Below, in pieces: positions 3,554 to 53,168 of a DNA stretch of 64,000 bases. A program made the translations under genes and the position numbers. Position 1 is the first letter of the stretch; the number at the start of each line of letters is the position of its first letter. The notes under the pieces were generated by a model. The model did no database searches. It saw only the letters and a list, made by a program, of their open reading frames with translations, and was not told the DNA's origin. The stretch is from Thermoanaerobaculia bacterium (GTDB lineage: Bacteria > Acidobacteriota > Thermoanaerobaculia > UBA5066 > Gp7-AA6): the NCBI GenBank assembly GCA_046261875.1, contig JBHENW010000024.1:955-64954 (forward strand), written 5' to 3'.

Positions 3554-3686
3554 TCCGTCGCTGACTGGGCCGCGTGCGGTCGCCGCGCGACTGGCGGCCA
3601 GATGTTTCAAACCGGGGGCCCAGCAGGCGGTCGCCCGCCAAGGACAGCTCAGAAGCGACTGAGACGCGCCATATAAGATCGCCAAC

Positions 3687-4178: not shown

Positions 4179-4185
4179 TCCGCCG

Positions 4186-5696: not shown

Positions 5697-5721
5697 GGAG
5701 GCGGAGTCTAGACGCGGCGCG

Positions 5722-6729: not shown

Positions 6730-6797
6730 CGACGAGCCTCCCGTGCGAGGCGATGGGCCTCTCCGAATGAGACGCAATCCCGCAGACAAGGTTCCCG

Positions 6798-9700: not shown

Positions 9701-12700
9701 CCGAGGCGCCCCGCGTGTTGCGCTGGAGCAGCTCCGGCGAGGCGCGCAGCGTCGGATCGAAGTAGAGGACCCGGGTGGCGAGCCGCTGGAAGAGATGCGC
9801 CTCGTCCCCGCTGATCCCGAGATGCCGGAGCTGGACCTGCGCCTGGGTCCAGGCGAGCGTCGCGGTGCGCTCGAAGGCGGCGGTATCCCGGTACTTGTCC
9901 GCGGCCCCGACGAGCGCCTCGCGGTCCTTGCCGGCGAGGGTCGTGAAGGTGATGCGCGCGGTAGCGCCCGGAGCCAGCCGCACGCGCCGGTGGATGCTGA
10001 AGATCGGGTCGAGCACCGGGCCGGCCGTGTTGGACAGGGGATGGCCGTCGTGGACGGCCGCCGGGTTGCGGATCGTCCGGCCCCTGCCGAGGAAGCGCGC
10101 CCGATCCGTCTCGTACTGCGGCGCCCCGACGCTCTCCCCTTCGACGCTCACGACGTGCGCAGCCCAGATGCGCTCCTCCTCCTGGGAGCGCGGGCGTCGC
10201 GTCGCGAGGAGGCCGTCGAGCCGCGGGACGTACTCGGTCTGCACGAAGAGGTTCGAGAACGCCGGGTGGGAGAGGTCGGCAGCAGCGGGCGCCAGCACGA
10301 TCTCCGCATAAGAGGTCACCTCGATCTCCCGCGGGCGCACGCCGAGGTTGGTCAGGGAGACCTGCCGCAGCTCGGCGTCGTCCTCGGGGGAGACGAGGAC
10401 CTCGAGCATCGTGGCGATCGTGCCGTCGCGCCGGCGGATCTCCGCGCGGTCTTCGGAATAGGCCACCTCGTAACTGTCGGCTTCCCGGCCGGCGGGCTGA
10501 TACCCGGCCGACCAGACCTCCCCGCTCGCCGCGTCGCGCAGGAAGACGTAGCTGCCCCACGCGTCGCGCGTGACGTCCTCCCGCCAGCGGGTGACGTCCA
10601 GGCCCCCCCAGCGGCTGAACCCCGAGCCCGCGGCGGTGATCATGACGGCGTATCTCCCGTTGGAGAGCAGGTGGGCGCGCGGGGTCGGATCGTGCGGCGA
10701 CCGGAAGCTGCGCAGGACGGGCGGGATGAAATCGCGCACGTGCAGGTGCGTCTGCACTTCCTCTGCCCGGGGCCGGGCCACGGCGACGCCCCGCGGAGTC
10801 CGCTCCTGCAGGAGGAGCTCGGCGGACCGCACGACCGCATGGGCGTGGAAACGTTCGCGCATGATTCCCGACCGCAGGACGTTGGCGAGCGCCACGATCG
10901 TCATTCCCTGGTGGTGGGCCATGTGGGCGCGCACGACCGTGACCCGTTGCCCTTCCTGAACGCGGGCCGCCGTGAAGTCGAGGGCTTCGTAGAAGCCGTA
11001 CGGACCCGCCGCCCCGGCTCTCGCCAGGCGGCGGAAGTTTTCGACGGACTCCGCCGGCGCGATCATCGCCGCGAGCGCCGTGGCATAAGGCGCCACGACG
11101 AGGTCTTCGGAGAGGCCGCGCTTCAGCCCGAGCCCGGAAACACCGAAGTTCGAATACTGGTAGGTCAGCTCGATGTCCCGGGCGCCGTAGGCGGACTCGG
11201 AAACTCCCCAGGGGACGCCCCGCTCGGCGCCGTACCGGATCTGGCGGTGGACGATCAGCCGCGCGCTCTGTTCGAGCAGGCTCCCCGACGGCGACCGCAG
11301 AACGAGCTCGGGCATGAGGTACTCGAACATCGACCCGGACCAGGAGACCAGCGCCGAGCCGCGTCCCACGGGAGTCAGGGCGCGTCCCAGACGGAACCAG
11401 TGGGTCACCGGGACTTCGCCGAAAGCGACGGCGAGGAAGCTCGTGAGGCGGGCTTCCGAGGCGAGCATGTCGTAGTACCCGGAGTCCAGCCGCCCATCGG
11501 AAGGCCGATAACCGATCGAAAAGAGCTTTCGCGTCGGATCGTAGAGGAATCCGAACTCCATGACGTCGGCCATCTCCCGTACCGTGCGCGCGATGGTCTG
11601 GAGCCGCCGGGCCAGCCCGGCGCCCGCCTCGGCTCTGCGGCGCAGACCGGCGAGGATCTGCCGCACGGTCTCCGGGGTCCCCGCCGGAGAGCCCTCGACG
11701 GGGATCCTTTCCAGCGCGTCCGCCGCCTCGGCGAAGGTCTCCGGCGCTTCGGCAATCGGTGGAAGAGAAGCCTCCAGAGGCTCGAGCCGCGCTCGGATCT
11801 CCTCGGGGAAGGCCGGGGGGGAGAAAGCGCCCGTCTCCACCCACGCGGCGGACAGGAACAGGTCGCGTCGATGGCTTTCGATCCCGTCCCGGACCGCGCC
11901 CGACCAGAAAACGACTTCGGTCCATGCGGGGCCCTCCTCTTCGGCGAGGGCCTGGGAGGCGTCCACGAGAACCGCGGCGCGCGCGGCGAGATCGCCCAGG
12001 CGCCCGCGCCACTCCGCCGGGCTCCGCGGGAGGACATGCGCCATCTCCTCGATCTCCTCGAGAACGCGCTCGAGCTCGCGGGTCGTGCCGGCGCGGCCTC
12101 GCCGCTCACCGCGCGCTTCTTCGAATGCTTCGCGGGCGAGATGCAACGCATCGCCGATGCCCGCCAGTGCCTGCTCGCCCAGAGCGGGCTCCCGAAGCTG
12201 CTCGATGCACGCTTCCTGCAGCGCCAGCAGGTGCCCGGCGAGGTTCCCGCTGTCCACAGTGGACACGTACCGTGGCTCCAGCGCCGCCAGCCGTTCCGTG
12301 TCGTACCAGTTGTAGAAGTGGCCGCGGTAGCGCTCGAGCCGGCCCATGCTGGCGAGCGTCGCTTCGAGCCGCTCGACGAGCTCGAGCGTCCCGATCCACC
12401 CCAGGTCGTGGGCAGCCGCGGCCGACAGCAGATAGAGGCCCATGTTCGTCGGGGAGGTGCGGTGGGCCACGACCGGTTTGGGATCCTGCTGGTAGTTGTC
12501 GGGCGGCAGCTGGTTGTCCAACGGCGTGACGAAGGTCTCGAAGTAGCGCCAGGTCTGCCGCGCGATCCGCCGCAGGTACAGCTCCCCGGCGGGGGTCAGG
12601 CCGGGGGCATCGGCGTCTCGGGGCGGCAGGCTGATGGCCCGAGCCACCGCCGGAGAGGCCGCCCACAGGAGGAGGAAAGGCGCCGCCAGGTCGAAGGCCA

Positions 12701-15578
12701 GGGGGCGCCAGATCGCGACGGCTGCCCCGAGGGCAAGGGCGATGAGGGGCGCGGGGACCATGCGGCGGTAGAAGCCGCTCAGCTTCAGGTCCAGCCCGCT
12801 CTGCGCCTGCGCCGCGGTCACCCATTCGAGCAGGCGCCGCCGCGCGATCAAGCGGGCGAATGTGCGCACGGCGGCGTCCGTCATGAGGTACGCCTGGTAC
12901 GCGAGCAGCGTCAGGTTGATCGCCGCCTGTGAGACCGCCAGCGTCACGTCCCTGCCGAGCCCCGCGACGAAGCTTCGCTTGGAAATCCCGAGCCGGCTTG
13001 GTAAGAGCGACGCGATCAGGTGGAGCGCGCTCGGTCCCGCAATCGTGGCGACGATGAAAGAGGCCCACAGCTCCGGCGAGCCGCCCGGCAGGAGCCAGCT
13101 CGCGGCGAACGTCAGCACCGCGGCCGGCGCCGACAGCGTCCGGCGCAGGTTGTCGGCCATCTTCCACCGCGCGATGGCCGTGATGCCGCGGCGCCGACGG
13201 CCCTTCGCGTCGCGCGCGATGCCCAGGATCCATGGGAGGAGCTGCCAGTCCCCGCGCGCCCACCGGTGCTGGCGGGCGGCGGCGACTTCGTAATGGCCCG
13301 GAAAGCTCTCGAAGAGCTCCAGGTCGGATACGAGACCGGCCCGGGCGAAGAGACCTTCGAAGAGGTCGTGGGAGAGGAGGGAGTTCTCCGGCACACGGCG
13401 CGCGAGGGCCGTCTCGAACGCGTCCACCTCGTAGAGTCCTTTTCCTGTGTAGATGCCTTCCCCGAACAGGTCCTGGTAGACGTCGGAGGTCGCGAACGCG
13501 TACGGGTCGATACCCTGCGGCCCAGAAAACACACGCTGGTGCACCGTGCCGGGCCCGTGGAACGGAAGGGTCGTCGTCACGCGCGGCTGCAGCACGGCGT
13601 GCCCCTCGACGATGCGGTCCGCCGCCGGGTCGAAGACGGGGCGGTTCAAGGGGTGCGCGATCGTCCCGACGAGCCGGCGCGCGACCCCGCGGTTCAACCG
13701 CGTGTCGGCGTCCAGCGTGATGACGAAACGGACCCCGGGGGGAGGCGGCCCCGGTGACAGGAACGTCGTGTCCCGGGCGCCGCGCAGCCACCGATTGAGC
13801 TCGTGGAGCTTGCCGCGCTTGCGTTCCCAGCCGATCCACGACTTCTCCGACGCGTTCCAGACGCGGTGGCGATGGAGGAGAAGGAATCGCGGCCCCCCAC
13901 CTTGCGGGGGGGCCGGGTGGCGCGCGTTCAGCTCGGCGATCGCGGCGCGGGCGACCGCCAGCAGGAGCTCGTCCTCCGGTAGCGATTCCGACGGCGCGTC
14001 GACCCAGTCGGTCAGCAGCGCGAAGCGGATCGCCCCGTCGTCGTTGGCGAGGGCGTGGACCTCGAGGCGTCCGATGAGCGCGCGGATGTCCTCCTCGTCG
14101 GTCAAGAGAGCGGGCACCGCGACCAGCGTCGCGAGCTCCGGTGGCACCCCGTGCGCGAGCTCCAGCTTGGGAAGGCGCCTCGGCCCGATCAGATCGGTGA
14201 CGTCCCGGTTCACGACGGCCGTTGCCAGGTCGGAGGCCGGGACGAGCGCGAAGAGAGCGATCAGGAGGAGCGGGAGCCCCGTCATGCCGGTCGCGGCCGC
14301 GAGAACGACCGGCAGGGCGATGAGCGCGGCCGTCAGCACGAACACGCTCGTGACGTATCCGGGCGTGGCGAAGGCGACGAAGGCGCGCCGGAGCCAGCGC
14401 GCGGGCGGAACGCGGTACCCGAGCTCCTTCTCGAACGCCTCGCGCCCACGGGAGATCAGGTAGAAGCCGGGATCCGAGCTTCGCGCGTCCCCGCCGGCCG
14501 CGGCTCCCTCCGCCGCGGCCTCCCGGCCCTTCTCGGCGGCCCGCCGCGCGACCTCGAGCTCCGCGAGCCGGGAGCCCCGCGCCAGCTCCTCGACGGCGTG
14601 GCGATACCGGTCGCGCGTGGCGAAGTCCATTGCCGCCACGAGGGTTCCCTCGCGCAGCGCCGCTTCCACGAGGCTGACCTCCTCGAAGAAGGTCTCCCAG
14701 TCCGTCGAGGAGAGAAGGCGCATGCTCGTGATGACGTTGCGCACCGTCACGTGCGACGCGACCTGCTCCTGGTGCTCCTGCCGGACGAACTCCTCCGGCG
14801 TCGTGCCCTGCGCCGCGAGCCTCTCGTTCAGCCACGACGCGGCGGGGGTCGAGGCCGGGTCCCGGTCGCGGAGACGCTCGGCGAGTTGAACGGCGAAGGC
14901 GGTGGAGAGCGTCCCGGATTCGAGCTCGCGGAGCGCTTCGCGCGGCTTCTCGCCCGGGCCTCCGACCCCGAGGAGCACGTCGGCGAGCCGGTCGGCGCGC
15001 TCCCGGTCCGCTCGCCGCTGCACGATGTATTCGACGAGGCGGCGCAGGTTCTCGACGAGCACGAGTCGCAGCGAGATCGCGATCGCCCACAGCTCGCCGA
15101 TGGTCAGCGGCTGCACGCGCTGGTACGCCGTCACGAATCGGCGCAGCGCCTCCGCCTCGAATCGGCTGTCCGTGTGCTCGACGAACGCCCAGGCGATCCC
15201 GAGCACGCGGGGATACCCGGCGAGGGGCCCGTCCGCGAGCTTGGGCAGCTCGCGGTAATAGCTCGGCGGGAGATCTTCGCGGATCTCGCGCAGCTGCTCT
15301 TCCACGATGTGGAAGTTGTCCACGAGCCATTCCGCCGCCGGGGAGATCGCGCGCTCCTCCCGGATCGCCTGGCCGATCGCCCGGTAGGAAGCGAGCAGGA
15401 CGCGGTGGTTCTCGCGCAGCCGGGGGAGCAGCCGGCTCCCGCGGCGCTTGCCGGGCAGCACGCGATGGGTCGCGGCGAGCGATTCGGCGAACTCCTCGAG
15501 CCGCTCGAGAGAGAACAGCTCCCCGCGGATGGGCAGGTCGGCGGGATGGGCGGAGAGAAATACCGGAGGGGCGGCCAT
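6798..15578 (-). CDS. ndvB: cyclic beta-1,2-glucan synthase (NdvB/ChvB/Cgs; GT84 + GH94 domains), 2926 aa
   Basis: Size; conserved Cgs N-terminal region; multiple TM helices; GT84 region ([13 protein letters not shown]); C-terminal GH94 cellobiose-phosphorylase-like domain ([23 protein letters not shown]..., [13 protein letters not shown]..., [14 protein letters not shown]). Single uninterrupted 8.8-kb ORF, ATG start. Confidence 0.9.
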   Translation of the reverse strand: [2926 protein letters not shown]

Positions 15579-15703: not shown

Positions 15704-17227
15704 TCACCGCCCCGCCGGCTCGACGCGGAAGACCCGCCCGGTCTTCGGGAACACCTTCATCGTCTTCTCGGTCGGGTTGAAGACGCCGAAGTCCAGGATG
15801 TACACGAGGCCGTCCGGGCCGATCTGGACGTCCACGGGCCTCTCGAGGCCGACCTCCAGGTCGAGACGCGAGGCCGGTTGGGGCGCGCCCGCGCCGCGGT
15901 TGCGCGCGAAGACGGTGCGGCGTCCCGTCTGCAGATCGACGGCTTCCACCTGGAAGCCCGTGCGGACGTCCGGGCGGACCGCGTCCGTCGTGGGCTTGAA
16001 GTCTCCCATCTCCGAGATCAGGAGCTGGCCCGACCAGCGGGAGAAAGGCCCCCCCGCCGGCACGACGGACATGCCGCCGAGCGCCGCGTGCGGCTCGGTG
16101 ACCGTGACGAGAAGCGATTTGTCGGGTGCCGCGAGCCCGCTCGCCGCGTGGTCGAAAACGAACTCCAGGCCCGAATGTCCCGGAGCGAGGAACTGCGCGG
16201 GCGCCCGGTGCTTGGGCGCCGTGACCGGCTCGAGGGCCCCGGAGTAATCCGGCCAGCCGTACCAGACGCCCGGCCGGACCCGATAGATCGCGTCGGGGTC
16301 ATCGAGGACCGGACGCGTGCCGCGGATGTCAGCGCCATGCATCCCAACGAGCAGCGTGCCGCGCGGGTCGAAGGCGAGCGCGACAGGGTTGCGGAATCCC
16401 CAGCCGACGAGCTCGGGCGTCGTCGCGCCGGCACGCAAACGGAAGATCGCGCCCGTGCACGGGACTTTCCCGGCGACCTGCGTCGCCGCCGATTCTCCGT
16501 AGGCCTGGTAGGCCCCCGTCGTCGCCTTGTCGTCGTCGGGATCTGTCAGCGCGTTGTCGTCGGTGAACGTCTTACCCGTCAGAACGACGTCGCGGCAGGG
16601 GATGTCCCGCGTCTTCGGACGCTTCTTCAGCCACTTCTGGTTGACCGGATCCTGCGAGGAGACGACGCCCGAGTTGGTCGCGCTCCCGACGCCGAAGTAG
16701 AGGCTCCCCTGGCCGTCGAATGCCAGGTAGTTCACCCAATGGTCGCCGTCGCCCGGCATCCCGCGGATGACGGGCTCGGCCGCTCCACCGGAGGGACGCA
16801 GCCGGCTGATCCCCCAGGTCCCGTCCTTCTCCTCGTGCGACAGATACAGCCAGCCGCCGCGGAACGCGAGCCCGACCGCCGTCTCGCCGGTCGGCGCTCC
16901 GGGGCCTTCCCAGCGGACCTCTTCGAGCTCGCCGTTCCCCGCGACCTTGAGAATCTTCGGCTTGAGCGTCGGGACGGCGACGCTGTGCGACTCGAGGATG
17001 TAGAGGCTGCCCTTGTCGTCCCAGGCCATCGAGCTCGGGAAGTTGAGGCCCTCGACGACCTGCACGGCGCGGTAGCCGTCCGGAACCTGGATGGCGTCGG
17101 CGGGCGCGACTTGCGCCTTGTAGCTCGCGGCCTGCTCCGCGCCGCGGGTGTCTAGCGTGCCGCCGCCGCAGCCGACCAGCGCGCCGCACGGCGCGAGGAG
17201 GAGTGCGGCCCGGAGCAGCGCTCTCAT
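15704..17227 (-). CDS. PQQ-dependent sugar/sorbosone dehydrogenase-like beta-propeller lipoprotein (SGDH family), paralog 1
   Basis: Lipobox signal MRALLRAALLLAPCGALVGC; beta-propeller motifs shared with paralog at 24998..26524 (WGFRNPVALAFDP.G.L, GVWYGWPD, YILDFGV). ATG 17227 overlaps the DUF2231 stop (ATGA). Confidence 0.65.
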   Translation of the reverse strand: MRALLRAALLLAPCGALVGCGGGTLDTRGAEQAASYKAQVAPADAIQVPDGYRAVQVVEGLNFPSSMAWDDKGSLYILESHSVAVPTLKPKILKVAGNGELEEVRWEGPGAPTGETAVGLAFRGGWLYLSHEEKDGTWGISRLRPSGGAAEPVIRGMPGDGDHWVNYLAFDGQGSLYFGVGSATNSGVVSSQDPVNQKWLKKRPKTRDIPCRDVVLTGKTFTDDNALTDPDDDKATTGAYQAYGESAATQVAGKVPCTGAIFRLRAGATTPELVGWGFRNPVALAFDPRGTLLVGMHGADIRGTRPVLDDPDAIYRVRPGVWYGWPDYSGALEPVTAPKHRAPAQFLAPGHSGLEFVFDHAASGLAAPDKSLLVTVTEPHAALGGMSVVPAGGPFSRWSGQLLISEMGDFKPTTDAVRPDVRTGFQVEAVDLQTGRRTVFARNRGAGAPQPASRLDLEVGLERPVDVQIGPDGLVYILDFGVFNPTEKTMKVFPKTGRVFRVEPAGR

Positions 17228-17722
17228 CGCGCGCCTCCCCTCGCTTCGCGCATGCCGATCTCGAGCGCTTCCGGGTCCTTGTTCTCCACGACGCCCACCT
17301 TGTGGTGATAGCTCAGGTTGCCGCCGAGCCAGCCCGAGACGCCGAGGAGCGCGAAGCCGAGGATCGACGTCCCGAGCGCGAGCGGCCACCTTCCCGTTTC
17401 GAGCGCCGCGTCCCCGCGCCGCATCCAGAAGGAGAGCGCGTAGAGCACGACGACGGCGACGTTGAGCCTCGCATGCCACGCGGCGAGACGCTTTCCCCGG
17501 GCGCTCATCGTCACGCCGAAATATTCGATCAGGCCGAAGACGGCCGCGAGCAGCGCGAAGGCGAGGCCCGCTCCGATGCAGACGTAGGAAAAGCGGTACC
17601 AGAAAGGATCCGACCCCCCGGCGTGGATCACGTCGCCGATGAGAGCGAGGAAGAATGCGCCGATGGGGATCGGCACGAGCATGGGGTGGATGGGGTGATC
17701 GCCGATGGCGGCCTTGCTCTTC
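17224..17722 (-). CDS. DUF2231-family integral membrane protein
   Basis: 4 TM helices, HPIHPMLVPIPIGAFF N-terminal motif typical of DUF2231; GGAGGGG RBS upstream of ATG 17722; translationally coupled to downstream SGDH. Confidence 0.6.
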
Positions 17723-28739: not shown

Positions 28740-29717
28740 TCAGGAGAAGCGTACGGCTTCCGTGTTGCCGCCGCAGACGATGACTCCGACACGCTCCCCC
28801 GCGCGCGGCACGTAGCGGCCGGAGATCAGCGCCGCCATGGCCGCCGCCCCGCCGGGCTCGGCGGCGATCCGGGCGGTGTCCCGGAGGACCTGCTGGGCGC
28901 GCCGGATCTCCTCGTCCTCCACGAGCAGGACGCCCTTCGCGAAGCGACGGGCGAGCGGGAACATGAACTCCCCCCACGCGGCGCGGCGCGAGAGAGTCGG
29001 CGGCGATACCGCCAGCCGGCGCATCGACCGGGTGCCCCGCCCGGAGCGCCTCGAAGGCGTCGGCGACCCCTTCGGCTCGACTCCGAGGACGGCGGCCGCG
29101 CCCCGATACCAGGCGGCGATCCCGCGGATCAGCCCGCCCCCTCCGACGGCGACGAGGATCGCGTCGAGACCCGGCGCCTGCTCGGAGAGCTCGAGCGCCA
29201 CCGTGCCCTGGCCGAGGAGCGTCTCCTTTTGGTCGTAGGCGTGGATGGCCAGCGCCCCGGAGCCGGCGGTCCCTTCCTCGCTGGCGGCGAGGGCGTCGGC
29301 GTAGAGGTCCCCGGACACGACGAGGTCGGCGCCGCACGCGAATCCGCTCGACCTTCGACGGCGACGCGGCCGTGGGGACGAAGATCCGCGCCGGGATCCA
29401 CAGCCGCATCGCCGCGTACGCCACGGCGAGCCCGTGGTTCCCGCCGGAGGCCGCGGCCACGCCCGCGACCGGGATGTGTCGCAGAAGCAGGTTGGCGAAA
29501 GCCCCGCGTGCCTTGAAGGAGCCGCTATGTTGGAGCACTCGAGCTTGAGGACGACCGTGCAGGGGTTGATCCCGAGCTCCTCGCCGCGAACCTCGAGAAC
29601 CGGCGTCCGCCGTACGTGCTCGCGCAGGATGCCGTAGGCCGCGCGGATGGCTTCCGCGTCGATGGCAGGCAGGGAAGAAGGGTTTGACAGCGGGAGGCTC
29701 GGTAAGTAAATTGGCAA
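28740..29717 (-). pseudogene. threonine/serine dehydratase-like PLP enzyme (fold type II), disrupted by two compensating frameshifts
   Basis: N- and C-terminal parts read in one frame (RTPVLEV...VVLKLE; ...ADLVVSGDLYADALAAS..., QGTVALELSEQAPGLDAILVAVGGGGLI). The PLP-lysine segment LQHSGSFKARGAFANLL...SGGNHGLAVAYAAMRLWIPARIFVP...KVERIR is encoded in the -1 frame between ~29535 and ~29340. Confidence 0.65.
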
Positions 29718-29727
29718 ATGAGCGTAT

Positions 29728-30030
29728 ATGCTTCAAGTAGGAGTGGTCAAGGCCCTCGCCAACGAGAAACGGCTGCGGATCCTCGGCTGGCTGAAGGATC
29801 CGACCCGCCACTTCCCGCCGCAGGTGTACGGAGACCTCGAGCGCGACGGCGTGTGCGGCATCTTCATCGCCCAGAAGCTCGGCGTCACGCCGCCGACCGC
29901 CAGTGAGCACCTCCGCGTCCTCACGCAGGCCGGCCTCCTCCGCGCCCGCCGCATCCGGCAATGGACGTTCTACCGGCGCGACGAGAGCAGGATTGCCGCG
30001 GTGAAACGGGCGTTTCGGTCGACATGGTAG
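29728..30030 (+). CDS. ArsR/SmtB-family transcriptional regulator
   Basis: wHTH motif ALANEKRLRILGWL...IAQKLGVTPPTASEHLRVLTQAGLL. Confidence 0.8.
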   Translation: MLQVGVVKALANEKRLRILGWLKDPTRHFPPQVYGDLERDGVCGIFIAQKLGVTPPTASEHLRVLTQAGLLRARRIRQWTFYRRDESRIAAVKRAFRSTW

Positions 30031-37748: not shown

Positions 37749-37787
37749 TCGCAGCAAGGCGATTCATTTCGCGCAAGGAGAACGAGC

Positions 37788-38552
37788 ATGAGCACAGGCA
37801 TCCGTACGGAGGGGGTTACAGAAACGGCGGCGCGGTTCAAGGCGAGGACGGCCGGTTTCTTCTGGCTGATGACGTTTCTGACGGGCAGCTTCGCGATGGT
37901 CGCCGGCGGGCGGCAGATCGTGGCCGGCGACCCCGCGGCCACGTCGGCCAACATCCTGGCGAACGAGTCCCTGTATCGGCTGGCGCTCACGTCCAACCTG
38001 ATCGCCGGCGCATGCTATCTCGCGGCGACGCTGCTCGTGTACGAGCTGCTCAAGCCGGTGAACAGGGGCATCTCGCTGCTCGCGGCGTTCTTCAGTCTCC
38101 TGGGCGTCGGGAGCGGTGCCGTGACCTCACTTCTCTATTTCGCTCCATTGGTCGTCTAGGGAGCGGCGCGATATCTGAGCGTCTACACGGGGGAACAGAC
38201 GCAGGCGCTGGCGCTCCTGTTTCTCGGATTGGGGGAGCAGGCCTCCGCCATCTCCTTCGGGTTTTTCGGGCTGCACTGCCTCCTCGTCGGCTGGCTCATT
38301 CTCCGGTCGACCTTTCTGCCCCGCCTCGTGGGGGCCCTGATGGCATTGGGAGGGCTGGGCTGGCTGACCCTCTGCCTCGCCAATCTGCTGTCGCCGGCGC
38401 TCGGGCAGTCTCTGATCCCGTTCATCGCGATCCCCGGCCTCATCGGAGAGCTGTCGCTGATCTTCTGGCTACTCGTGAAGGCCGTGAACGCTCAGCGGTG
38501 GAAGGAGCAGGCGATCGCATCGGCCGCCGTGACCATCCCGGAGCATGCATGA
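37788..38552 (+). pseudogene. DUF4386-family membrane protein interrupted by a single in-frame TAG at 38157..38159
   Basis: Track ORFs 37788..38159 and 38229..38552 are in the same frame; the intervening in-frame translation (GAARYLSVYTGEQTQALALLFLGLGEQASAISFGFF) is continuous DUF4386-like sequence and matches the intact paralog immediately downstream. Confidence 0.55.
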
Positions 38553-39259
38553 CGCGCACGACGAACGCGCGGCTCGCCGGCTTCACTTTCCTCTTCTACA
38601 TCGCGGCCGGCATCACCCGCATGATTCTGTCCAGCCGGGCGATGAGCGGGGAGGGGACCGCGGCAAAGCTCGAGAGCCTCGCCGGACACGCGACGGAGTT
38701 GCGCTTCATCGTCGTGCTCTCCCTGCTCATGAGCCTTTCGGCCCTGGTGCTGGGCGTGACGCTCTGGGCGATCACGCGCGAGCAGGATCCGGATCTCGCC
38801 ATGCTGGCGATGACCTGTCGCGTCGTCGAGGGCGTCAACAATGCGAGCTCGATACCGCAGACGCTCGGATTGTTCTGGCTCGCTACGGCCACCGGAGCCA
38901 ACGCGCCGGACTCCGCGGCCGCGCAGGCGCTCGCCGCGTACTTTTTCCGTGAGGGAGCGGGCGTCAGCGCAACGTTCTTCGCCGTGGGCAGCACCCTTTT
39001 CTCGTGGCTCCTCCTGCGCGGCCGGATGATTCCCGTCCCTCTGGCCTGGCTGGGCGTGGTCGCCTCGGTCCTGCTCGTCTTGCTCCTTCCCCTGCAGCTC
39101 GCCGGATCCGTCCGGTCCTTCTCCGGCGCAGTTGGCTGGCTCATGTGGATGCCCATGCTCGTGTTCGAGCTCGTGTTCGCGCTCTGGCTGCTCATCAAGG
39201 GTGTCGCCGCGCCGGCCGCCCGGCGTTCGCCTCTCAACCAACCCTCAACGGTTTCATGA
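38549..39259 (+). CDS. DUF4386-family membrane protein (intact paralog)
   Basis: MTRTTNARLAGFTFLFYIAAGI... 6 TM; ATGA overlap with the upstream gene stop. Confidence 0.6.
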   Translation: MTRTTNARLAGFTFLFYIAAGITRMILSSRAMSGEGTAAKLESLAGHATELRFIVVLSLLMSLSALVLGVTLWAITREQDPDLAMLAMTCRVVEGVNNASSIPQTLGLFWLATATGANAPDSAAAQALAAYFFREGAGVSATFFAVGSTLFSWLLLRGRMIPVPLAWLGVVASVLLVLLLPLQLAGSVRSFSGAVGWLMWMPMLVFELVFALWLLIKGVAAPAARRSPLNQPSTVS

Positions 39260-41094: not shown

Positions 41095-41472
41095 ATGAAG
41101 GGTGCCATGAGCCTGAACGGGATCTTCAACGGTTACTCCGTGGCGAGTTCCGCCGACGGAATCCCCATGGACACTTACCCGCCGGCCGCTGCAGGGACGA
41201 TCGTTTCTCTCTTCGCGCTCCTGGGGCTCTCCCGCCTCATGATCTCCTTGCTTGGTCTATTGGTCTTGGTTCGGTATCGCAGCATGATTCCGTTGATGTT
41301 CGCGTTGCTCCTGCTGGAACATCTGAGCGCAAGACTGGTTCGGTTGTTCATTCCCATCGTCAGGACCGGAACGCCACCCGCTGGTGTCATAAACCTCGCA
41401 CTCCTCGGCCTGATGATCGTTGGCTTCGCGCTATCGCTACGGCGCCAAGGCAATCTTCGAGTACAGGAGTGA
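41095..41472 (+). CDS. hypothetical membrane protein
   Basis: 3 hydrophobic helices; hydrophobic in-frame sequence continues upstream to the ADH stop without a canonical start, so the boundary is uncertain. Confidence 0.35.
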   Translation: MKGAMSLNGIFNGYSVASSADGIPMDTYPPAAAGTIVSLFALLGLSRLMISLLGLLVLVRYRSMIPLMFALLLLEHLSARLVRLFIPIVRTGTPPAGVINLALLGLMIVGFALSLRRQGNLRVQE

Positions 41473-42852
41473 CCTACGAGTGTCGTTGCCCCGTGCCCGG
41501 CGGGCCCATCGGCTCGTCGCCGGCTGTACGGCTTCCGGCTTGTCCACCTCTTCGATGCGGACATCCGAAGGCGGTCTTTCCTTCTGCAGGCGTGCCGCGG
41601 CGGCTTCGGCCTTCCGCATGACCCGGAGCACGTTGCGGCCCGCGATGCCCTCGAGCTGCTCGTCCGTGTAGCCGCGCCGGACGAGCTCGGCGAAGAGAAC
41701 GGGGGTAGGCGGCCACGCTCTCCAGGCCTTCCGGCGTGGTGGAAATCCCATCCAGGTCGGCGCCCACTCCGGCGTGCGCGGCGCCGGCCACCCGCACCAC
41801 GTGGTCGATGTGATCGGCGACGTCCTGCAGGGTCGCCCGCGGTGCGGGATTCGCGCCTTCCCACGGGGCGAGCGCCCCCTTCGTCTTCTCCGGCTGCCCG
41901 CGATACAGGGCCTTGAGGCGCGCCTCTTCAGCGTCTTTCGCGGCGTCGCGCGCGCGCACCTTCTCCGAGACGAACGCGGGCACCCACGTGACCATTTACC
42001 ACGCCGTCGTTCTCCCGGACGCGGCGCAGAACGTCATCGGGAACGTTTCGCGCGTGATCCGTGATCGCCCGCGCGGAGGAATGCGAAAAGACGACCGGCG
42101 CTGCGGTCGCGTCCAGGATGTCGTGCATCGTCTTCGGCGCGACGTGCGAGAGATCGACGAGCATGCCGAGACGATTCATTTCCGCGATGACCAGCTTCCC
42201 GAACGGGGTGAGGCCGCCGTGGACCGGATCGGCCGTCGCCGAATCGGCCCAGTCGGGTTCGCGCCGTGCGTGATCGTCAGATATCGCGCGCCCGCCGCGA
42301 AGAGCTGGGGAGAACGGCGAGTGAGTTGAGAATGGAGTGGCCGCCTTCCACTCCGATGCGCGAGGCGATCTTGCCGCGGCGATGGATGCGCACGACGTCA
42401 TCGGCGGTGCGAGCGAGCTCGAACGTGTCCGGGTAGAGCTCGCCCAGGCGGTGGACGACATCGATCTGCTCGAGGACGGCCCGCACGGCGTCCGTGCCCG
42501 TGCGCGTCGTCGGGACGTATGCGGACCAGAACTGCCCGCCGATCCTCCTCTGCCGCAGCCGCGGGATGTCCGTGTGCAGCGCGGGGGTGAGCTTGCTCTG
42601 GTCCTGCCGGATGTCCAGCTGCGCAAGATGATTCCTGACCCGCTCCTCGTACTGGGAGGGAAGGTCGTTGTGTCCGTCGATCAGCGGCACTTCGCGGAGG
42701 ATGCGGTCGATGCGCGCGTCCACGGAGTTCGTCTGGGCAGTTGCGGGAACGGCGAGAGCGACGAACAGCGTCACTCCACAGAGGACGCGCCGCCGCGTGA
42801 GCCAGCTCGACCTCGCCGTGGAGGCGGGCGTGTCATCGCGCCACGTGAGCAT
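41437..42852 (-). pseudogene. M19-family membrane dipeptidase, fragmented by at least three frameshifts
   Basis: Four ORF fragments in different frames together cover a colinear M19 dipeptidase: IDGHNDLP...[18 protein letters not shown]...IGVEGGHSI | [11 protein letters not shown]...[27 protein letters not shown]...[25 protein letters not shown] | MVTWVPAFV...LQDVADHIDHVVRVAG..HAGVGADLDGI | LFAELVRRGYTDEQLEGIAGRNVLRVMRKAE. The 41995 junction is a single extra A in an AAA run. Confidence 0.7.
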
Positions 42853-43549
42853 CGAGACGGGCCGCGCCCAGCCCAGTCGGGAAATGGTCCTTCTGCTCGG
42901 CCGCGCGCTCGACGTGCCCCTGCGCGACCGGGAACGATCTCCTGGTCGCGGCCGGCTACGCGGCCATGTACCGCGCCACCGATTCCGACGCGCCGGCCCT
43001 CGAGCAGGCGCGACGGGCGCTCGATTTCATGCCGCGCCAGCAGGAGCTTTACCCCGCCATCGTGGTCGATCGCCATTGGACGATCCTGAAGGCCAACGAC
43101 GGCGCCGTGCGGCTGGTGGGGGCCTTCGCAAACGCTTCGGCCGCGGCCGAATGGCGCGGCAACGCGAGGCGGCTCATGTTCCATCCGCCCGGCTTTCGGC
43201 CGTGCATCGTTCAACTGGGAGGCCATGGCGGCGGCGCTGATCCAGTGGCTCCACCGTGACGTCCTGGCGGGGGCTCGGCGGCGCCGAGACCCGCGGGCTC
43301 CTGGACGAGCTGCTCTCCTATCCCGGCGTGCCGCCCCGGTGGCGCACGCTTGACCTCGACGTCTCCACCGCTCCCTTCCTGGCGATCGAGTTCGAAAAGG
43401 GAGACCTCCGCCTCTCCTTCTTCTCCACCTTGACCAGCCTCGGGACCCCGCAGGACATCACCCTCCAGGAGCTCCGGATCGAGTCGTTCCTCCCGGCCGA
43501 CGCGGCGACCGAGGAGGCGTCGCGGCGTCTGGCGGGCGGATCTGAATGA
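42776..43549 (+). pseudogene. MmyB-like XRE-family transcriptional regulator, 5'-truncated and fragmented by several frameshifts
   Basis: HTH (RRRVSQLDLAVEAGVSSRHVSIETGRAQPSREMVLLLGRALDVPLRDRE) then MmyB-like ligand-binding segments in two other frames (LLVAAGYAAMYRATD...YPAIVVDRHWTILKANDGAVRLVG...FHPPGFRPCIV | EAMAAALIQWLHRDVLAG | LLDELLSYPGVPPRWRTLDLDV...LSFFSTLTSLGTPQDITLQELRIESFLPAD). Confidence 0.6.
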
Positions 43550-44441
43550 GGGCGACGCCCGCCAGGATGATCGCCATCGACGCGATCATGCGCAGCGTCA
43601 CCGGCTCCCGAAGCAGGAGCGCCCCCGTGAGCACCGCGATCCCCGGATTGACGTACGCGTACGACGACACCTGGCCCGCGCTCAACTTGGTCTGCGCGTA
43701 GTTGTAGGCGGTGTAGGCGACGACCGAGCCGAGCACTGCCAGGTAGAGCACAGCGACGGACGACCGGACGGAGAACATGCCCGCCGTGGCGCGCTCGCCG
43801 GCCGCGAGCGCGGCGAGCGTCACCGCCACCCCTCCGGCGAGCATCTGCACGACGGCCGCGGCCATCGGGTCCGCGCTCGCCCGATGGCGGCGCGAGATGA
43901 GCGTTCCGCCGTTCCAGCAGATCGCGCTCAACTGCATCGCTCCGACCGCGAGAAGGAATCGTCCCGAGAGATCGACACGGCCGATCGCCGGCGCGACGAG
44001 CAGTCCCACGCCGCCGAACCCCAGGACGAGGCCGGCGATCTTCCTCCCGGTCAGCGAAGAGAGCCCGAGGACCGCCTCCATGGCGGCCATCCAGATCGGA
44101 ATCGTCGCGGCGAGGAGGGCGGCCAGGCCGCTGGTCAGCGTGTGCTCGGCATAGACGACGAGGGTGTTCCCGGCGCCGGCCATGAGGACACCGGCGATCG
44201 TCTGGTCGCGCCACTCCCGCGTGCTCTTCGGAAAGCGCGCTCCGCTCAGCCCGGCGATCAAAAGAAGGAGAAGGCCCGCAATGAGGAAGCGGGCGCCCCC
44301 GACGATCAGCGTCGGGATCGTCTCGATGGCCACGCGGATCGCGGCGAACGTCGTCCCCCAGATGACGCAGATCGCCGCGAAGGCGAGATACGCGCCGACG
44401 CGGCTCTCGCGCGGGGAGCGCGCGAGAGCCGACTCCATCAC
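43458..44441 (-). CDS. EamA/DMT-family transporter
   Basis: 10 TM helices in two EamA repeats (ICVIWGTTFAAIRVAIE..., YAQTKLSAGQVSSYAYVNPGIAV). GTG 44441 / ATG 44438 start. Confidence 0.75.
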   Translation of the reverse strand: MMESALARSPRESRVGAYLAFAAICVIWGTTFAAIRVAIETIPTLIVGGARFLIAGLLLLLIAGLSGARFPKSTREWRDQTIAGVLMAGAGNTLVVYAEHTLTSGLAALLAATIPIWMAAMEAVLGLSSLTGRKIAGLVLGFGGVGLLVAPAIGRVDLSGRFLLAVGAMQLSAICWNGGTLISRRHRASADPMAAAVVQMLAGGVAVTLAALAAGERATAGMFSVRSSVAVLYLAVLGSVVAYTAYNYAQTKLSAGQVSSYAYVNPGIAVLTGALLLREPVTLRMIASMAIILAGVALIQIRPPDAATPPRSPRRPGGTTRSGAPGG

Positions 44442-44551
44442 TTGGAAGCCGGCGGGAGACCGTAACTCATCGTGGGGCGAAGGCTCAGGATCTCGACGGT
44501 CGTCTTGGCGATCGAGGCGCCGGCCTCGTCCGGCAACGCCTGCTCGGTCAT
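44438..44551 (-). CDS. tiny 37-aa ORF translationally coupled on both sides (speculative)
   Basis: ATG overlaps the stop of the upstream gene (ATGA at 44548..44551) and its TGA overlaps the EamA ATG (TGATG at 44436..44440); peptide MTEQALPDEAGASIAKTTVEILSLRPTMSYGLPPASK. Confidence 0.3.
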   Translation of the reverse strand: MTEQALPDEAGASIAKTTVEILSLRPTMSYGLPPASK

Positions 44552-45168
44552 TCCATCGAGATCGAAGACAGGCTGGGCCGGGGACGCAACCGGACGTAGC
44601 GGGGATGCGGTCCGCCCGCCACCATCCGATACCAGAGCGTCTCCCCCTGCAGCCGCGGCTGCTCGGCGCCGAGGGCTGCCTCGAACGCCTTCGCCGTCCC
44701 GGGCACGAGGTCCACGGTCGTGAACTCGAGCCGCGCGGTCGACTGGGGGGTGCCCGTGCCCCGCGAAAGCCCGGGGAGGAACTCGAAGAGCGCGTTCCCG
44801 ACGAACCGGGCGTGTCCTATGACGTTCAGGACGTTGTCCCTCTCGTCCTCCGCAGGGGCCACGGGGTTGTCCAGGCTCGCGGCCGAGTGCCCGAACGTCG
44901 CGTAAACGAACCACCGCTGCCGTTCACCGGCCCAGATGGTCCAGCCGTACCAGACCCAGGGGTCCCGAGCCTGCCGGTGCCACTCCAGGTGCCGGACGTA
45001 TCCGGCCTCGAAGTCCACGGTGTCCCCGTCGTGGGGACGCAGGATCGCGATGCGGGCATACGGACCCCGTTCGGTCTGGGCGGGGAGCCGCGCGGGAAGC
45101 ACGGAGCCGATCAGAAGCACCGTGGAGACGATCCAGAGCCAATGAGGCTTCATGAAGTTCCTCCTCAC
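44548..45168 (-). CDS. hypothetical secreted protein
   Basis: Signal peptide MKPHWLWIVSTVLLIGSVLPARLPAQ; Trp-rich mature domain; no recognised family. Confidence 0.5.
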   Translation of the reverse strand: MRRNFMKPHWLWIVSTVLLIGSVLPARLPAQTERGPYARIAILRPHDGDTVDFEAGYVRHLEWHRQARDPWVWYGWTIWAGERQRWFVYATFGHSAASLDNPVAPAEDERDNVLNVIGHARFVGNALFEFLPGLSRGTGTPQSTARLEFTTVDLVPGTAKAFEAALGAEQPRLQGETLWYRMVAGGPHPRYVRLRPRPSLSSISME

Positions 45169-45204: not shown

Positions 45205-45221
45205 ATTACCTGACAGGTAAT
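45205..45221. promoter_or_regulatory. perfect 17-bp palindrome ATTACCTG-A-CAGGTAAT in an intergenic region
   Basis: Read directly; located between the NmrA stop (45257) and the start of the secreted hypothetical gene (45168); candidate operator. Confidence 0.4.
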
Positions 45222-45256
45222 CGCACGCGACCGGTCGGCCGCGGCCCGGCGAGGGG

Positions 45257-46207
45257 CTATCCGAGCGGTATCTCTTTCTTGTGCCGGCCGAGCCAGTCCT
45301 CGAAGCTCTGAAGCTCGGGGTTCAAAGCCCGCGTCGCCTCGATGTCTCTCGCGCCGCGGAACTGCTCGTTGAAGTCCCTCTTGTACTGGAACATGTTGCC
45401 CATGTCGTCCGCGCCGGGGAAACCGAAGCCGCGGTAGGTCTCGGGAGTCACGGCGTTGTACCGGATCTCCTGGCCGAGGGCGCGCGTCATGGCGGCCGCC
45501 ATTTCCGAGCCGGACAGGTGCTCTCCCGCGATGCCCACCGTCTTGCCGATGAATTCCTTTCCGCGCTTGAAGATGGCGTACGCGGTCTTTCCGATGTCTT
45601 CCACAGCGATTCCCGGGAGCTTCTTGTCGTCCATCGGAAACGTGAGGGCGAGCCTGCCGTCCGGCCCTCTCTTGGGGCCGGCGCCGAAGTAGATGAAGTT
45701 GTCCCAGTAGAAGGACGTGACGAGAAACGTGGTCGGAACCCCGAGGTCGCGAAAGATCTGATCGGCCTCGCCCTTGCCGTCGAAGTGCGGGACCTTGTAC
45801 TTGCCCATCAATGTCGGCATCCGGTCGTCTTCGAGCGGGATGCTCCTGCGCGTGTCTTCGAGGGTGGACCAGATCACGTGCTCGAGACGGGCGGCCTTTG
45901 CGGCGCGGGCCATGTTCCCGGCTTGGGCCAGTTCGCGCTCCGGCGAGAAATACTCCCAGTAGTTCGTGACGCAGAAAGCGCCGTACGCGCCGGTGAAGGC
46001 GCGCTCGAGGCTCGCCGCGTCGTCCAGGTCCGCCGCGACGGCCTCCACGCCGGAGGCGGAGAGGGCCTTTCCTTTCTCGGACTCCGGTTTGCGGGTGAGC
46101 GCGCGAGCCTGGAACGGCCCGCTCTTGTCCGCGACGATTGCGCGTACGAGACCCCCGCCCTGCGCGCCGGTTGCTCCGACGACCGCGATCGTTCTCTTTT
46201 CTGCCAT
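45257..46207 (-). CDS. NmrA-family NAD(P)-binding protein
   Basis: TIAVVGATGAQGGGLVRAIV Rossmann motif; NmrA-like length; AAGGAGG RBS before ATG 46207. The track ORF extends upstream with no support. Confidence 0.8.
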   Translation of the reverse strand: MAEKRTIAVVGATGAQGGGLVRAIVADKSGPFQARALTRKPESEKGKALSASGVEAVAADLDDAASLERAFTGAYGAFCVTNYWEYFSPERELAQAGNMARAAKAARLEHVIWSTLEDTRRSIPLEDDRMPTLMGKYKVPHFDGKGEADQIFRDLGVPTTFLVTSFYWDNFIYFGAGPKRGPDGRLALTFPMDDKKLPGIAVEDIGKTAYAIFKRGKEFIGKTVGIAGEHLSGSEMAAAMTRALGQEIRYNAVTPETYRGFGFPGADDMGNMFQYKRDFNEQFRGARDIEATRALNPELQSFEDWLGRHKKEIPLG

Positions 46208-50913: not shown

Positions 50914-51054
50914 CGTTCACCTCTTAATCTGGATGCGGGAGACGTCGATGAGCCCCACGCCCTCGCAGCTCCGCATCCATACAGAGCAACAGCCGGAGCC
51001 CCCAGGAAGGTTCCGCGACCTCCCAGCGATTAGACTCGCGCTGGACAGGCGAAG

Positions 51055-51630
51055 GTGAGGACGGATTCTTCCGAAGGACGTGAGCGATTCGAGGCGACGG
51101 CGCTGCCGCTTCTTCCGGCCGTGTACGCGTACGCGATCCGGCTCTCGCGGAATGCCGAAACGGCGCGCGACCTCGTCCCGGAAACTTACCTGCGCGCCTA
51201 CCGGACGTTCAACAACTTCCGGCCGGGAACCAACTGCAAAGCCTGGCTGTTTACGATCCTGTATTCGATTTTCGTCAACCGTTACTGGAAGAGACGCCGG
51301 GAGCTGAAAACCGTGCCGCTCGAGGAGATCGAGGGTAGATTCCAGGCGTCGCTCGACCCGAACGATGCGCTTCGAGCGGGCAGTCCCGGTCCGAACTGGA
51401 CTAACCGGGACATCGAGGCGGCGCTCGACGAGCTACCCGAGGATTTCCGCGCGACCGTGATCCTGGTCGACATCGAGGAGCTCTCGTACGAGGAGGCAGC
51501 CGCCGCTCTGCGCTGCCCGGTCGGAACCGTTCGATCACGCCTGTCGCGCGCGCGCAAGCTGCTCTACTCGGCGCTCGAGGAGCACGCTCGGCGGGTCGGA
51601 TACCTCCGGGAGACTGGTTCGGAACGATGA
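51055..51630 (+). CDS. ECF-subfamily RNA polymerase sigma-70 factor
   Basis: Region 2 (AVYAYAIRLSRNAETARDLVPETYLRAYRTFNNF) and region 4 (ELSYEEAAAALRCPVGTVRSRLSRARKLL); GTG start with AGGCGAAGG RBS. Confidence 0.85.
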   Translation: MRTDSSEGRERFEATALPLLPAVYAYAIRLSRNAETARDLVPETYLRAYRTFNNFRPGTNCKAWLFTILYSIFVNRYWKRRRELKTVPLEEIEGRFQASLDPNDALRAGSPGPNWTNRDIEAALDELPEDFRATVILVDIEELSYEEAAAALRCPVGTVRSRLSRARKLLYSALEEHARRVGYLRETGSER

Positions 51631-52400
51631 AGCGCTCCGAGTCCCGTTTCCGTCGCGAGATCCCCGACTTGCTCGACGGACGCCTCAGCGCTCGCCGGCG
51701 CGTCCGGCTGGAGAGACATCTGGAAGAGTGTGCGGACTGTCGCCGCGAGTGGCGTGCGATCGTCCCGGTCAAGGACGCGGTGCGATCGGTGCGAAGCGAC
51801 CGAGAGCCGCCGAGCGATCTGGTCGCTCAGGTTCGGTCGGCGCTCGACCGGGAGGACCAGCTCGGAGAACGATCCCTCGCGGTTCAGGGAAGGTGGCTGA
51901 CGGCGCTGGCGGCCGCGGCCGTCCTCGTTATCGTTTTCCTCCTCGCCCGACAGAAACCGACCGACCCATCCCGCCAGGCCGCGCAAGACTGGAAGGGCTG
52001 GAAGTCGGGACGCGTTCAACTGGAGATCCGCTCGGATAGCCCCCAGGCGATCTCGCGGTTCTTTTCCGAGCGCGACATCGGTTTTCCCGTTGGGGCTGCC
52101 TCTCTGCACGTTCCGGGCTACCGCCTCGTCGGAGCCCGCGTGCACGTGCTCGGGGGACATCCGAGCGCGTTCTCGGTGTATCGGGGCCGCCAGACCGAGA
52201 TCCTCGTCTGCCAGATGTACGAAGGCCACCTGACACACCTCTCTTCCCCCTCACGCGTCCTCGAAAAAGGCGGCGTGCGTCTATACGTGTACCTGGGCGC
52301 TGATCTGACGCGGGTGGCCTGGCAGGATGGACCGCTCGTTTGCGTGATCGTGTCCAACGGCGCACCCGGGGAGGTCGTCGGGCTCGCCCTGGCCCAGGCC
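51627..52400 (+). CDS. anti-sigma factor (zinc-finger, single TM, periplasmic domain); 3' boundary uncertain
   Basis: ATGA overlap with the sigma gene; Zn-binding H..EEC..C (HLEECADCRREW); TM helix WLTALAAAAVLVIVFLLA. The track ORF runs on to 52970 without a stop through low-complexity Arg-rich sequence and through the tRNA-fragment repeat; the end given here is an estimate of the folded domain end. Confidence 0.55.
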
Positions 52401-52757
52401 CGCCGGGTCAGAACGCGACGGAAACGTCGCGGAGTCCTGATCCGTCCTGTACGATCCGGCGTTCGACGCCGTCCGACCGGAGCTCGCGAAAGTCTTCGCC
52501 GTCGCGTGGAAGACGTACGACGAGTACGACAAGAGCCCGAGGAAGCGGAAAGCGGGTCCCGACTCTCGGGACCCGGACCTCGAGCTGACGGTCGAATGGC
52601 CGAGACCTGGGATCGAATCCTCGAAGCCGAGCACAGAAGGATACCGGAGACGCCGTCAAACGTTCTCTTCGGCTACTACGAGCCGTACGCGATGAGCCTC
52701 GCGGCCACAAGCGCCGCCCCTACCGCGCCGCGAAAACCCGACCCCGCCCCGCCAACA

Positions 52758-52825
52758 ATAGAAACGCCGGGAGTCTCCTCCCGGCGTTTCAGAACCTTGG
52801 TTGCGGGGCAGGATTCGCCGCGGGC
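52758..52825. repeat. direct-repeat copy of the tRNA-fMet 3' end (~20 nt) plus its downstream terminator hairpin (attR-like)
   Basis: 52758..52790 AATAGAAACGCCGGGAGTCTCCTCCCGGCGTTTC vs 59027..59060 AAAAGAAACGCCCGGAGTCTCCTCCCGGCGTCTT; 52796..52815 CTTGGTTGCGGGGCAGGATT vs tRNA 3' end 59066..59087 CTTGGTTGCGGGGGCAGGATTT; followed by CGCCGCGGGC, a partial copy of the 58925..58946 hairpin. Confidence 0.7.
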
Positions 52826-53168
52826 AAACCTGCCGCGTCTCCATCTCGGCTGCAGTTCGCGTTCAGCTGAAAGACGGCTTTCGCCGCGGGCCGACCCGCG
52901 GCTGCCTCCCAGCGCGGCGATTTCGGCGTCTCGGCTTCAGACGGCCGCCCCCGCGACCTTTGGGGCATGAGAACGGTCCAGAGGTCGGCGCAACGCAACG
53001 GTTGTCAGCGAAACGACTCTGAAGTCGTCGATTCGTTAAGGCTTCCTTCACGATTGCCGATGGACCACCGTCGTCACGGAACACTTGACAAGCGGATCGG
53101 CCGGGACCTAGCGTGCCCTTGCGTCGTCCCGGGGTAGTGCTCACTGACTTCGGATCACGGAGGCTGGC

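Follow-up and report, generated by a model that had tools for sequence, protein, structure and literature searches.

Probable recent decay of a conserved module comprising an M19 dipeptidase, an MmyB-like regulator and a secreted-protein homologue in a Thermoanaerobaculia genome assembly

Bacterial pseudogenes have been characterized in Burkholderia and Ca. Burkholderia (PMC6054270), as well as in Salmonella, where their extinction dynamics were followed (PMC2916853). The Burkholderia pseudogenes show an insertion:deletion ratio of 0.76-0.94 by count and of 0.18-0.32 by size (PMC6054270). Pseudogenes of a different origin result from sequencing and assembly errors (Cooley & Wright 2024, PMC11017572), among them nanopore homopolymer indels (PMC9262707). 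Here we analyzed a 64,000-nucleotide (nt) stretch, hereafter the window, of contig JBHENW010000024.1 from a Thermoanaerobaculia bacterium metagenome-assembled genome (MAG; GCA_046261875.1, positions 955 to 64,954, G+C ~69%), in which the gene for an M19 dipeptidase and the adjacent gene for an MmyB-like regulator are both broken. The MmyB-like proteins are composed of an XRE helix-turn-helix (HTH) and a ligand-binding domain (PMC3406030). That the two genes are broken as read from the sequence is confirmed. Genuine recent decay of a four-gene module, three of whose four members are broken in the window, is the probable explanation.

Similar to the pseudogenes of Burkholderia and Salmonella, the broken genes carry several small indels each, with near-equal counts of insertions and deletions, a larger total size of deletions and some microhomology at the flanks, and they combine high similarity to functional orthologues with intact neighbours. 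However, the window belongs to a high-GC acidobacterial MAG of free-living type rather than to a host-restricted symbiont, its indel:substitution ratio is apparently higher, and its lesions are known from the assembly alone. With the error-derived pseudogenes the locus shares frameshifted conserved genes, lengthened same-base runs and its origin in a draft MAG assembly; it differs from them in the small number of genes hit, the large and codon-sized deletions and the radical substitutions, whereas the longest homopolymers, a gene embedded in the cluster and 11 kb checked against a short-read relative are all spared. As for the regulator, it has the same N-terminal XRE-type HTH and C-terminal PF17765 domain as MltR of Chloroflexus aurantiacus (PDB 3pxp; PMC3406030), and such regulators are typically divergent from their targets. 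In contrast to the known members, the copy in the window is dead, and its apparent targets would be the M19 gene and a p238-EamA operon with the candidate operator ATTACCTNNNAGGTAAT, not antibiotic- or fatty-acid-linked genes.

The broken dipeptidase and regulator genes

The features of the two genes, assigned by Pfam, tblastn, reading frames, repaired translations and DNA alignment, are as follows.

41437..42789, minus strand: pseudogene of Peptidase M19 (membrane/periplasmic dipeptidase)
41701..41705, minus strand: 1-nt insertion in a run of five G (five C on the coding strand), four C being implied by the relatives
41995..41997, minus strand: 1-nt insertion, TTT on the plus strand and AAA on the coding strand (GTAAATG against GTGATG in relatives)
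42255..42258 (~42256), minus strand: 1-nt deletion, TCGGGTT against TCGGTGTT or TCGTTGTT in relatives
42307..42310 (~42309), minus strand: 1-nt deletion, CTGGGGAG against CTGGCGAAG in relatives
42779..42797 (~42781), unstranded: junction of a ~150-220 bp deletion
42782..43549, plus strand: pseudogene of the MmyB-like (XRE HTH plus MLTR_LBD) regulator, truncated at its 5' end and carrying three +1 frameshifts as well as one codon deletion
42849..42850, plus strand: in-frame deletion of 3 nt (CTT)
42930..42932, plus strand: 1-nt insertion, GGG against GG
43210..43211, plus strand: 1-nt insertion, CGTTCAAC against CGTCAAC or CGTGAAC
43269..43273, plus strand: 1-nt insertion in a run of G, five against the four or fewer implied by the relatives

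Homologues of both proteins are found as hundreds of full-length sequences in Thermoanaerobaculia and Acidobacteriota metagenomes. The dipeptidase homology to intact orthologues of 420-440 aa extends from ~41512 to ~42789, and the gene's own start codon is absent. Four minus-strand open reading frames (ORFs) match PF01244 (Peptidase_M19) colinearly at profile positions 2-125, 142-230, 231-290 and 289-319, with 93.8, 120.2, 51.9 and 26.7 bits, respectively, each at or above the gathering score, placing the gene in this family; the gap at 125-142 is filled by a fifth short piece, which is read in another frame. Using the intact homologues as queries, tblastn gave high-scoring segment pairs in three frames, abutting at 42310/42296, 41995-41997 and 41702/41703. 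Alignment of the DNA against four intact relatives (L004, L005, L006 and L007, the last being from GCA_036506455.1) resolved four frameshifts of 1 nt each. The deletion at 42255..42258 lies outside any pre-existing homopolymer, and that at 42307..42310 takes out the middle base of a conserved Arg codon. An intact reading frame for the dipeptidase, complete with its start codon, is therefore absent, owing to the four frameshifts and the deletion of its start and promoter region. Upon repair of the frame, the translation is 85-87% identical to intact annotated dipeptidases, and the motifs GHNDL, VEGGH, DLSHV and FSHSS are readable in it, as read from the conceptual translation rather than mapped onto a structure. 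The binuclear zinc ligands of M19 enzymes are an HxD motif, a Glu and two His residues.

The regulator starts in one frame with HTH_3, continues in a second with positions 2-66 of PF17765 (MLTR_LBD; 43.8 bits) and in a third with positions 66-89, and returns to the first for positions 89-168 (30.8 bits), revealing a ligand-binding domain of this family. HTH_3 scores 22.7 bits, under the cutoff of 23, and its match begins only at profile position 5. The N-terminal XRE-type HTH is incomplete, with ~19-27 codons missing and the Phe of its SFIETGR motif removed by the codon deletion; this Phe is present in four of the four aligned relatives. The repaired translation is 84-88% identical to intact homologues of 265-292 aa.

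Differences from the relatives were also found between the two genes. The ~150-220 bp deletion, placed by the four-relative alignment, the gene maps of L004-L007, the ends of the tblastn matches and the absence of the operator, removes the dipeptidase start (~1-12 codons), the whole divergent intergenic region and the first ~19-27 codons of the regulator. The corresponding intergenic region, which carries a putative palindromic operator, measures 87-100 bp between the called genes in L004, L005 and L007, whereas in the window the M19 and regulator homologies abut or overlap within GGACGCGCCGCCGCG. As a result of the deletion, both strands read TRRRV at the junction, and the HTH starts abruptly.

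A preliminary description of the window, made from its letters, had reported a colinear M19 sequence over several reading frames with at least three frameshifts, one being an extra A in an AAA run at 41995. The Pfam and tblastn results agree with this, the count of shifts rises to four, and the extra A is the insertion seen in the plus-strand TTT at 41995-41997. It had further described an MmyB-like regulator over three frames, with at least three frameshifts and without the normal N-terminal segment of its HTH; three +1 shifts could be placed at the sites given above, and the relatives have ~19-27 extra N-terminal codons in addition to the 87-100 bp intergenic region. Its overall anatomy, i.e. 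a split dipeptidase, a split regulator, a missing 5' end, open large ORFs and few genes hit, was correct, but the damage was understated.

The four-gene module in relatives and its candidate operator

Two further genes follow the regulator, one open and one frameshifted.

43458..44441, minus strand: EamA-family transporter, open ORF (orthologue comparison)
43538..43539, unstranded: deletion of at least 27-34 nt at the convergent 3' ends of the regulator and EamA (alignment with five relatives sharing the convergent arrangement)
44450..45153, minus strand: p238, homologue of a secreted protein of 230-238 aa (tblastn in two frames, DNA alignment)
45205..45221, unstranded: 17-bp palindrome ATTACCTGACAGGTAAT upstream of p238, the sole surviving copy of the putative operator (motif count)

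The EamA protein is 85-91% identical to its orthologues, and its ORF is open and free of indels. Its 3' end was nevertheless altered by the deletion at 43538..43539. The missing segment is present, between direct repeats of GATC, in five of the five convergent relatives, and its loss cost EamA the last ~9 codons and the stop. The reading frame now continues for 26 codons along the regulator's antisense strand, giving the C-terminus ALIQI-RPPDAATPPRS... instead of the ALIQIDRS followed by a stop found in all relatives, and resulting in an overlap of 92 nt (43458-43549) with the regulator remnant. The p238 gene is the first gene of a p238-EamA operon and has no match in Pfam or NCBIfam. A -1 frameshift was found in it between 44560 and 44561, where the window reads TCGAG-ATCG against TCGAGAATCG.

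The preliminary description had proposed a comparison with orthologues in sister genomes. L004, L005, L006 and L007 each contain an intact, divergent dipeptidase and regulator, and all of the lesions in the window are derived relative to these four. The genomic context is shared: L004 has the same flanks as the window, namely GntR-FMO-ABC-permease-DUF4386-DinB on one side and EamA with the 238-aa protein on the other. The disruptions are thus derived with respect to intact orthologues in the same surroundings, as expected of pseudogenes. L001 and L003, the first dipeptidase contexts obtained, are non-syntenic and uninformative. Searching with EamA revealed 26 further metagenome loci, in which dipeptidase, regulator, p238 and EamA recur together in varied orders, such as the regulator divergent from EamA-M19, p238-EamA-M19, or p238-EamA convergent with the regulator. 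A different arrangement was found in L009 (MAG MFD09206.bin.1.14, 2777-10894), whose EamA is 90% identical and directly adjoins GntR, on the opposite side of the GntR-FMO-ABC-DUF4386-DinB block; neither a dipeptidase nor an MmyB regulator was found in this 20.9-kb syntenic locus. To judge from L009, the dipeptidase-regulator pair appears dispensable elsewhere.

In the relatives the palindrome ATTACCTNNNAGGTAAT occurs twice per locus, in the upstream region of the regulator and upstream of the p238 operon. The copy at the regulator lies, in most relatives, in the intergenic region shared with M19. Sites were found at 9949-9965 and 12535-12551 of L004 and at 5841-5857 of L005, and also in L006, L007, L023 and L035. 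The window retains one match, against 0 expected; the regulator/M19 copy is absent from it, having lain inside the deleted segment. We regard the palindrome as the putative operator of the module. The regulator, the secreted M19 dipeptidase, p238 and EamA apparently constitute one conserved Thermoanaerobaculia module under the MmyB-like regulator, whose DNA binding and ligand are predicted. More tentatively, with confidence that stays somewhat short of even, we propose a previously undescribed regulon that would be widespread in Thermoanaerobaculia, in which the MmyB-like protein would regulate itself and control M19 and p238-EamA via ATTACCTNNNAGGTAAT. The window would then illustrate a module-wide loss starting with deletion of the regulator promoter/operator, and L009 would represent the end state. 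Such a regulon, if true, would provide a defined operator and target set for an MmyB-like regulator outside actinomycetes. Even apart from this, a by-product of the comparison is that, in this uncultured acidobacterial class, the dipeptidase, p238 and EamA belong to a conserved module that has a clear candidate operator.

Upstream of p238, the synteny with relatives breaks at 45222-45257, and the p238 operator lies only ~35 bp from an NmrA-like gene in the window. A Ser/Thr kinase gene is found near p238 or EamA in L004, L012, L023 and L028; in L004 a 168-aa gene separates it from p238. In L008, which is 92% identical to the window, kinase-FHA immediately precedes NmrA. Compared with L004 and L008, the window may possibly have lost a block of ~3.5 kb at 45222-45257, made up of the 168-aa, kinase and FHA genes.

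Gene decay, assembly error and recoding

Frameshifts in the window were sought by Viterbi segmentation on codon usage and checked by Pfam and tblastn, a procedure that replaced a GC3/ORF census found to be too noisy. The census yielded 12 frameshifts, all in four genes totalling ~4 kb: the dipeptidase, the regulator, p238 and a distant gene of the PALP family. At an earlier stage of the census at least 8 of 10 frameshifts were already concentrated in a 2.9-kb part of the 64-kb window (binomial P ~7e-10). The clustering in a handful of genes that the preliminary description had noticed is borne out, with the p238 frameshift added to it. Its observation that the large ORFs are uninterrupted also holds: the 8.8-kb ORF (6798-15578, 2926 aa) is open, and neither it nor the other large ORFs contained out-of-frame excursions down to ~27 codons in the Viterbi segmentation.

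The lesions range in size over 1, 3, at least 27 and ~150-220 nt, and possibly ~3.5 kb. Between 41.4 and 45.3 kb, five insertions of one nucleotide stand against six deletions, of which three measure 1 nt and the others 3 nt, at least 27 nt and ~150-220 bp; the deletions would number seven if a possible gap of 21 nt in the variable signal-peptide region were included. With near-equal counts, a strong deletional bias by length and one GATC-flanked deletion, the spectrum looks natural; the counts and the length bias resemble those described for pseudogenes of high-GC Burkholderia (PMC6054270). The lesions do not track homopolymer length, since they fall in runs of 5 nt or less or outside runs, whereas elsewhere 169 of 169 runs of at least 5 nt are in frame, including 13 of at least 7 nt (four of them in the 8.8-kb ORF). 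Nor are they spread over the contig. Over 11.3 kb of the same contig that align at 92% identity with the short-read Logan contig L008, the closest DNA found and from a relative sequenced as SRR22742746, the genes contain zero frameshifting indels; L008 ends 100 bp short of the locus.

We further examined the load at conserved sites by counting private deviations at near-invariant columns and ranking them among 121 sequences; with just 6-8 orthologues such tests were uninformative, and a comparison of GC>AT with AT>GC changes was confounded by lineage-specific GC drift. The dipeptidase shows 7 private deviations over 182 near-invariant columns (mean 1.4 and maximum 6 in the other sequences) and the regulator 7 over 142 (mean 0.7, maximum 6), each the highest of the 121. 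Many of these replacements are radical, such as G>R, L>R (twice), L>P, P>L and M>R. Private changes at second codon positions make up 27 of 108 in the window versus 42 of 279 in the relatives. Lying within the lesion cluster, EamA serves as an internal control: its 129 invariant columns show no deviation, where the rate of M19 and the regulator would predict ~5.6 (P ~0.004), and the chance of all 8 interior lesions missing its 983 nt is ~0.03. Purifying selection appears relaxed in the broken genes but not in EamA, although the effect is modest and would be mimicked by raw-read error.

On these grounds, genuine recent decay of the module is the explanation we hold to be probable. We propose that one ~150-220 bp deletion would have removed the divergent promoter/operator together with both 5' ends, silencing the two genes at the same time. 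The lesions themselves are observed and their order is proposed; the largest deletion takes precisely the shared promoter/operator, giving a simple causal order. The regulator and dipeptidase, free of selection, would then have gathered 1-nt indels (four in M19 and three in the regulator), the codon deletion, the microhomology-flanked 3' deletion of at least 27 nt and radical replacements at invariant positions. Subsequently, p238 would have gained its one frameshift, while EamA, open and conserved, may either still be useful or have just been released from selection. The decay would be young, as the translations have kept 85-88% identity to those of intact orthologues; judged by the excess of changes at first and second codon positions, neutral divergence amounts to roughly 1%. 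Read in this way the locus is biologically ordinary, a young pseudogene cluster, and an ordinary case of the loss of a dispensable module by promoter deletion followed by indels.

Several observations weigh against decay and favour a local assembly or consensus artefact, in which a long-read source would have left low-coverage or badly polished patches at 41.7-43.3 kb, 44.56 kb and 28.99-29.54 kb, with indels and substitutions at nearly the error level of raw reads, the genes being intact in the organism. For the age proposed, indels are numerous: ~10 indel events stand against an estimated ~14 excess first- and second-position substitutions (implying ~20 neutral ones), a ratio near 2:1, whereas substitutions generally outnumber indels by ~10:1 in mutation-accumulation data (summarised in PMC6054270); this ratio, like the indel density of ~3 per kb, resembles raw long-read error more than it does such data. 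Each of the five insertions extends a run of the same base, as sequencing errors also do. The frame changes sum to zero modulo 3 in M19 (-1, -1, +1, +1), the regulator (+1, +1, +1) and PALP (-1, +1, -1, +1), which is mildly unexpected by chance (~1/27 for the three) though not significant; the p238 sum is non-zero. Many purported bacterial pseudogenes are assembly artefacts, which are common (PMC11017572). Several close MAGs of the clade are nanopore assemblies, and one of them, L004 (identical with L010; Microflora Danica MAG MFD09206.bin.2.36), shows a fragmented Peptidase_M13 gene, so that clustered gene fragmentation, through errors or pseudogenes, also exists in a nanopore sister MAG. Finally, no assembly of the same species was found, the 90% protein clusters checked having no more than one member, a more distant one, besides the window sequence. 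A 31-mer across the deletion junction had no match in the searched genome-contig collection, which lacks the source MAG as well, and a second genome sharing this deletion was thus not found there. Yet an artefact would require patches that coincide with gene boundaries on three occasions and pass over the 0.98-kb EamA gene, against the probabilities given above. Deletions of ~150-220 bp exact to the promoter/operator, of a clean codon and of at least 27 nt between repeats are atypical of consensus errors, two of the 1-nt deletions lie outside homopolymers, longer homopolymers elsewhere are correct, and the 11.3 kb compared with the short-read relative are without frameshifts. An artefact is in our view unlikely, but it deserves far more weight than recoding.

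Recoding would mean that the genes function by programmed ribosomal frameshifting, transcriptional slippage or another mechanism, or as separate fragments. The zero net frame change in the dipeptidase and regulator and the readable HxD, Glu and His motifs of the dipeptidase, in which the ligands are assigned from general knowledge of the family, are in line with it. However, the seven shifts go in both directions and have no slippery or stimulatory motif in common, every shift leads to a stop codon (the ORFs end at 42277, 41928, 43240 and 43259), the deletion left both genes without a start codon and promoter, and the Phe of the recognition helix is deleted. Moreover, the homologues, 240 among the matches listed, are all full length (263-465 aa) and none needs recoding. 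Recoding is effectively refuted, and we give it hardly any credence.

The preference of the preliminary description for localised decay over uniform error is supported by the size spectrum, the invariant-site load, the intact EamA, the clean 11 kb and the in-frame homopolymers, with the qualification that a locally poor long-read consensus would be non-uniform as well. More generally, where reads are not at hand, the case for or against assembly error can be built on intact genes embedded among damaged ones, on the load at invariant sites and on the size spectrum of the lesions.

Annotation and other lesions in the window

The window proteins correspond to GenBank MFN2385027-MFN2385063, with locus tags ABR576_. 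ABR576_01970 is a 125-aa ORF near the damaged pair. Two 97-aa hypothetical proteins, ABR576_01980 and ABR576_01985, are both pieces of the regulator, and the 201-aa hypothetical protein ABR576_01995 is the N-terminal piece of the frameshifted p238. No GenBank protein for the dipeptidase was found among the ABR576_ entries around the locus; the tag _01975, unused between _01970 and _01980, would presumably fit a dipeptidase annotated as a pseudogene. As fragments of dead or frameshifted genes, ABR576_01980, _01985 and _01995 are unfit as seeds for new protein families.

Two other genes of the window are damaged.

28743-29732, minus strand: pyridoxal phosphate (PLP)-dependent gene (PALP, threonine-dehydratase-like) with four frameshifts (Viterbi, Pfam, tblastn)
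37749-38549, plus strand: DUF4386 gene interrupted at 38157-38159 by an in-frame TAG (Pfam positions 1-102 and 113-209, without a change of frame)

The PALP shifts form two compensating pairs, ~29537/29342 and ~29075/28994, leaving an ORF of 330 codons open. The SGSFKARGA segment, which we take to hold the PLP-binding lysine, is readable in the alternate frame only, and the product of the longest ORF (28740-29717) had no exact entry in the searched protein collection. The TAG of the DUF4386 gene falls in the middle of the domain, and an intact DUF4386 paralogue comes next at ~38547-39256. DUF4386 calls are also oddly split in L004 (201 and 46 aa) and L005 (169 and 45 aa). The Peptidase_M13 gene of L004, called in three pieces of 259, 65 and 77 aa, and a short Peptidase_M3 fragment account for the segments 1637-3058 and 16886-17500 of that contig.

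Candidate frame changes at 21996, 29983, 50300, 51045-52442 and 57126 were rejected as normal gene boundaries or for want of homology support. Downstream of a zf-HC2 anti-sigma gene, ~400 bp of the window (52480-52875) are absent from L008, and the ORF at 51627-52970 encodes 447 aa in the window versus 261 aa in L008. Near this segment, three 1-nt indels relative to L008 were found at 52427, which is intergenic in L008, and at 52910 and 52947, both downstream of the extra segment.

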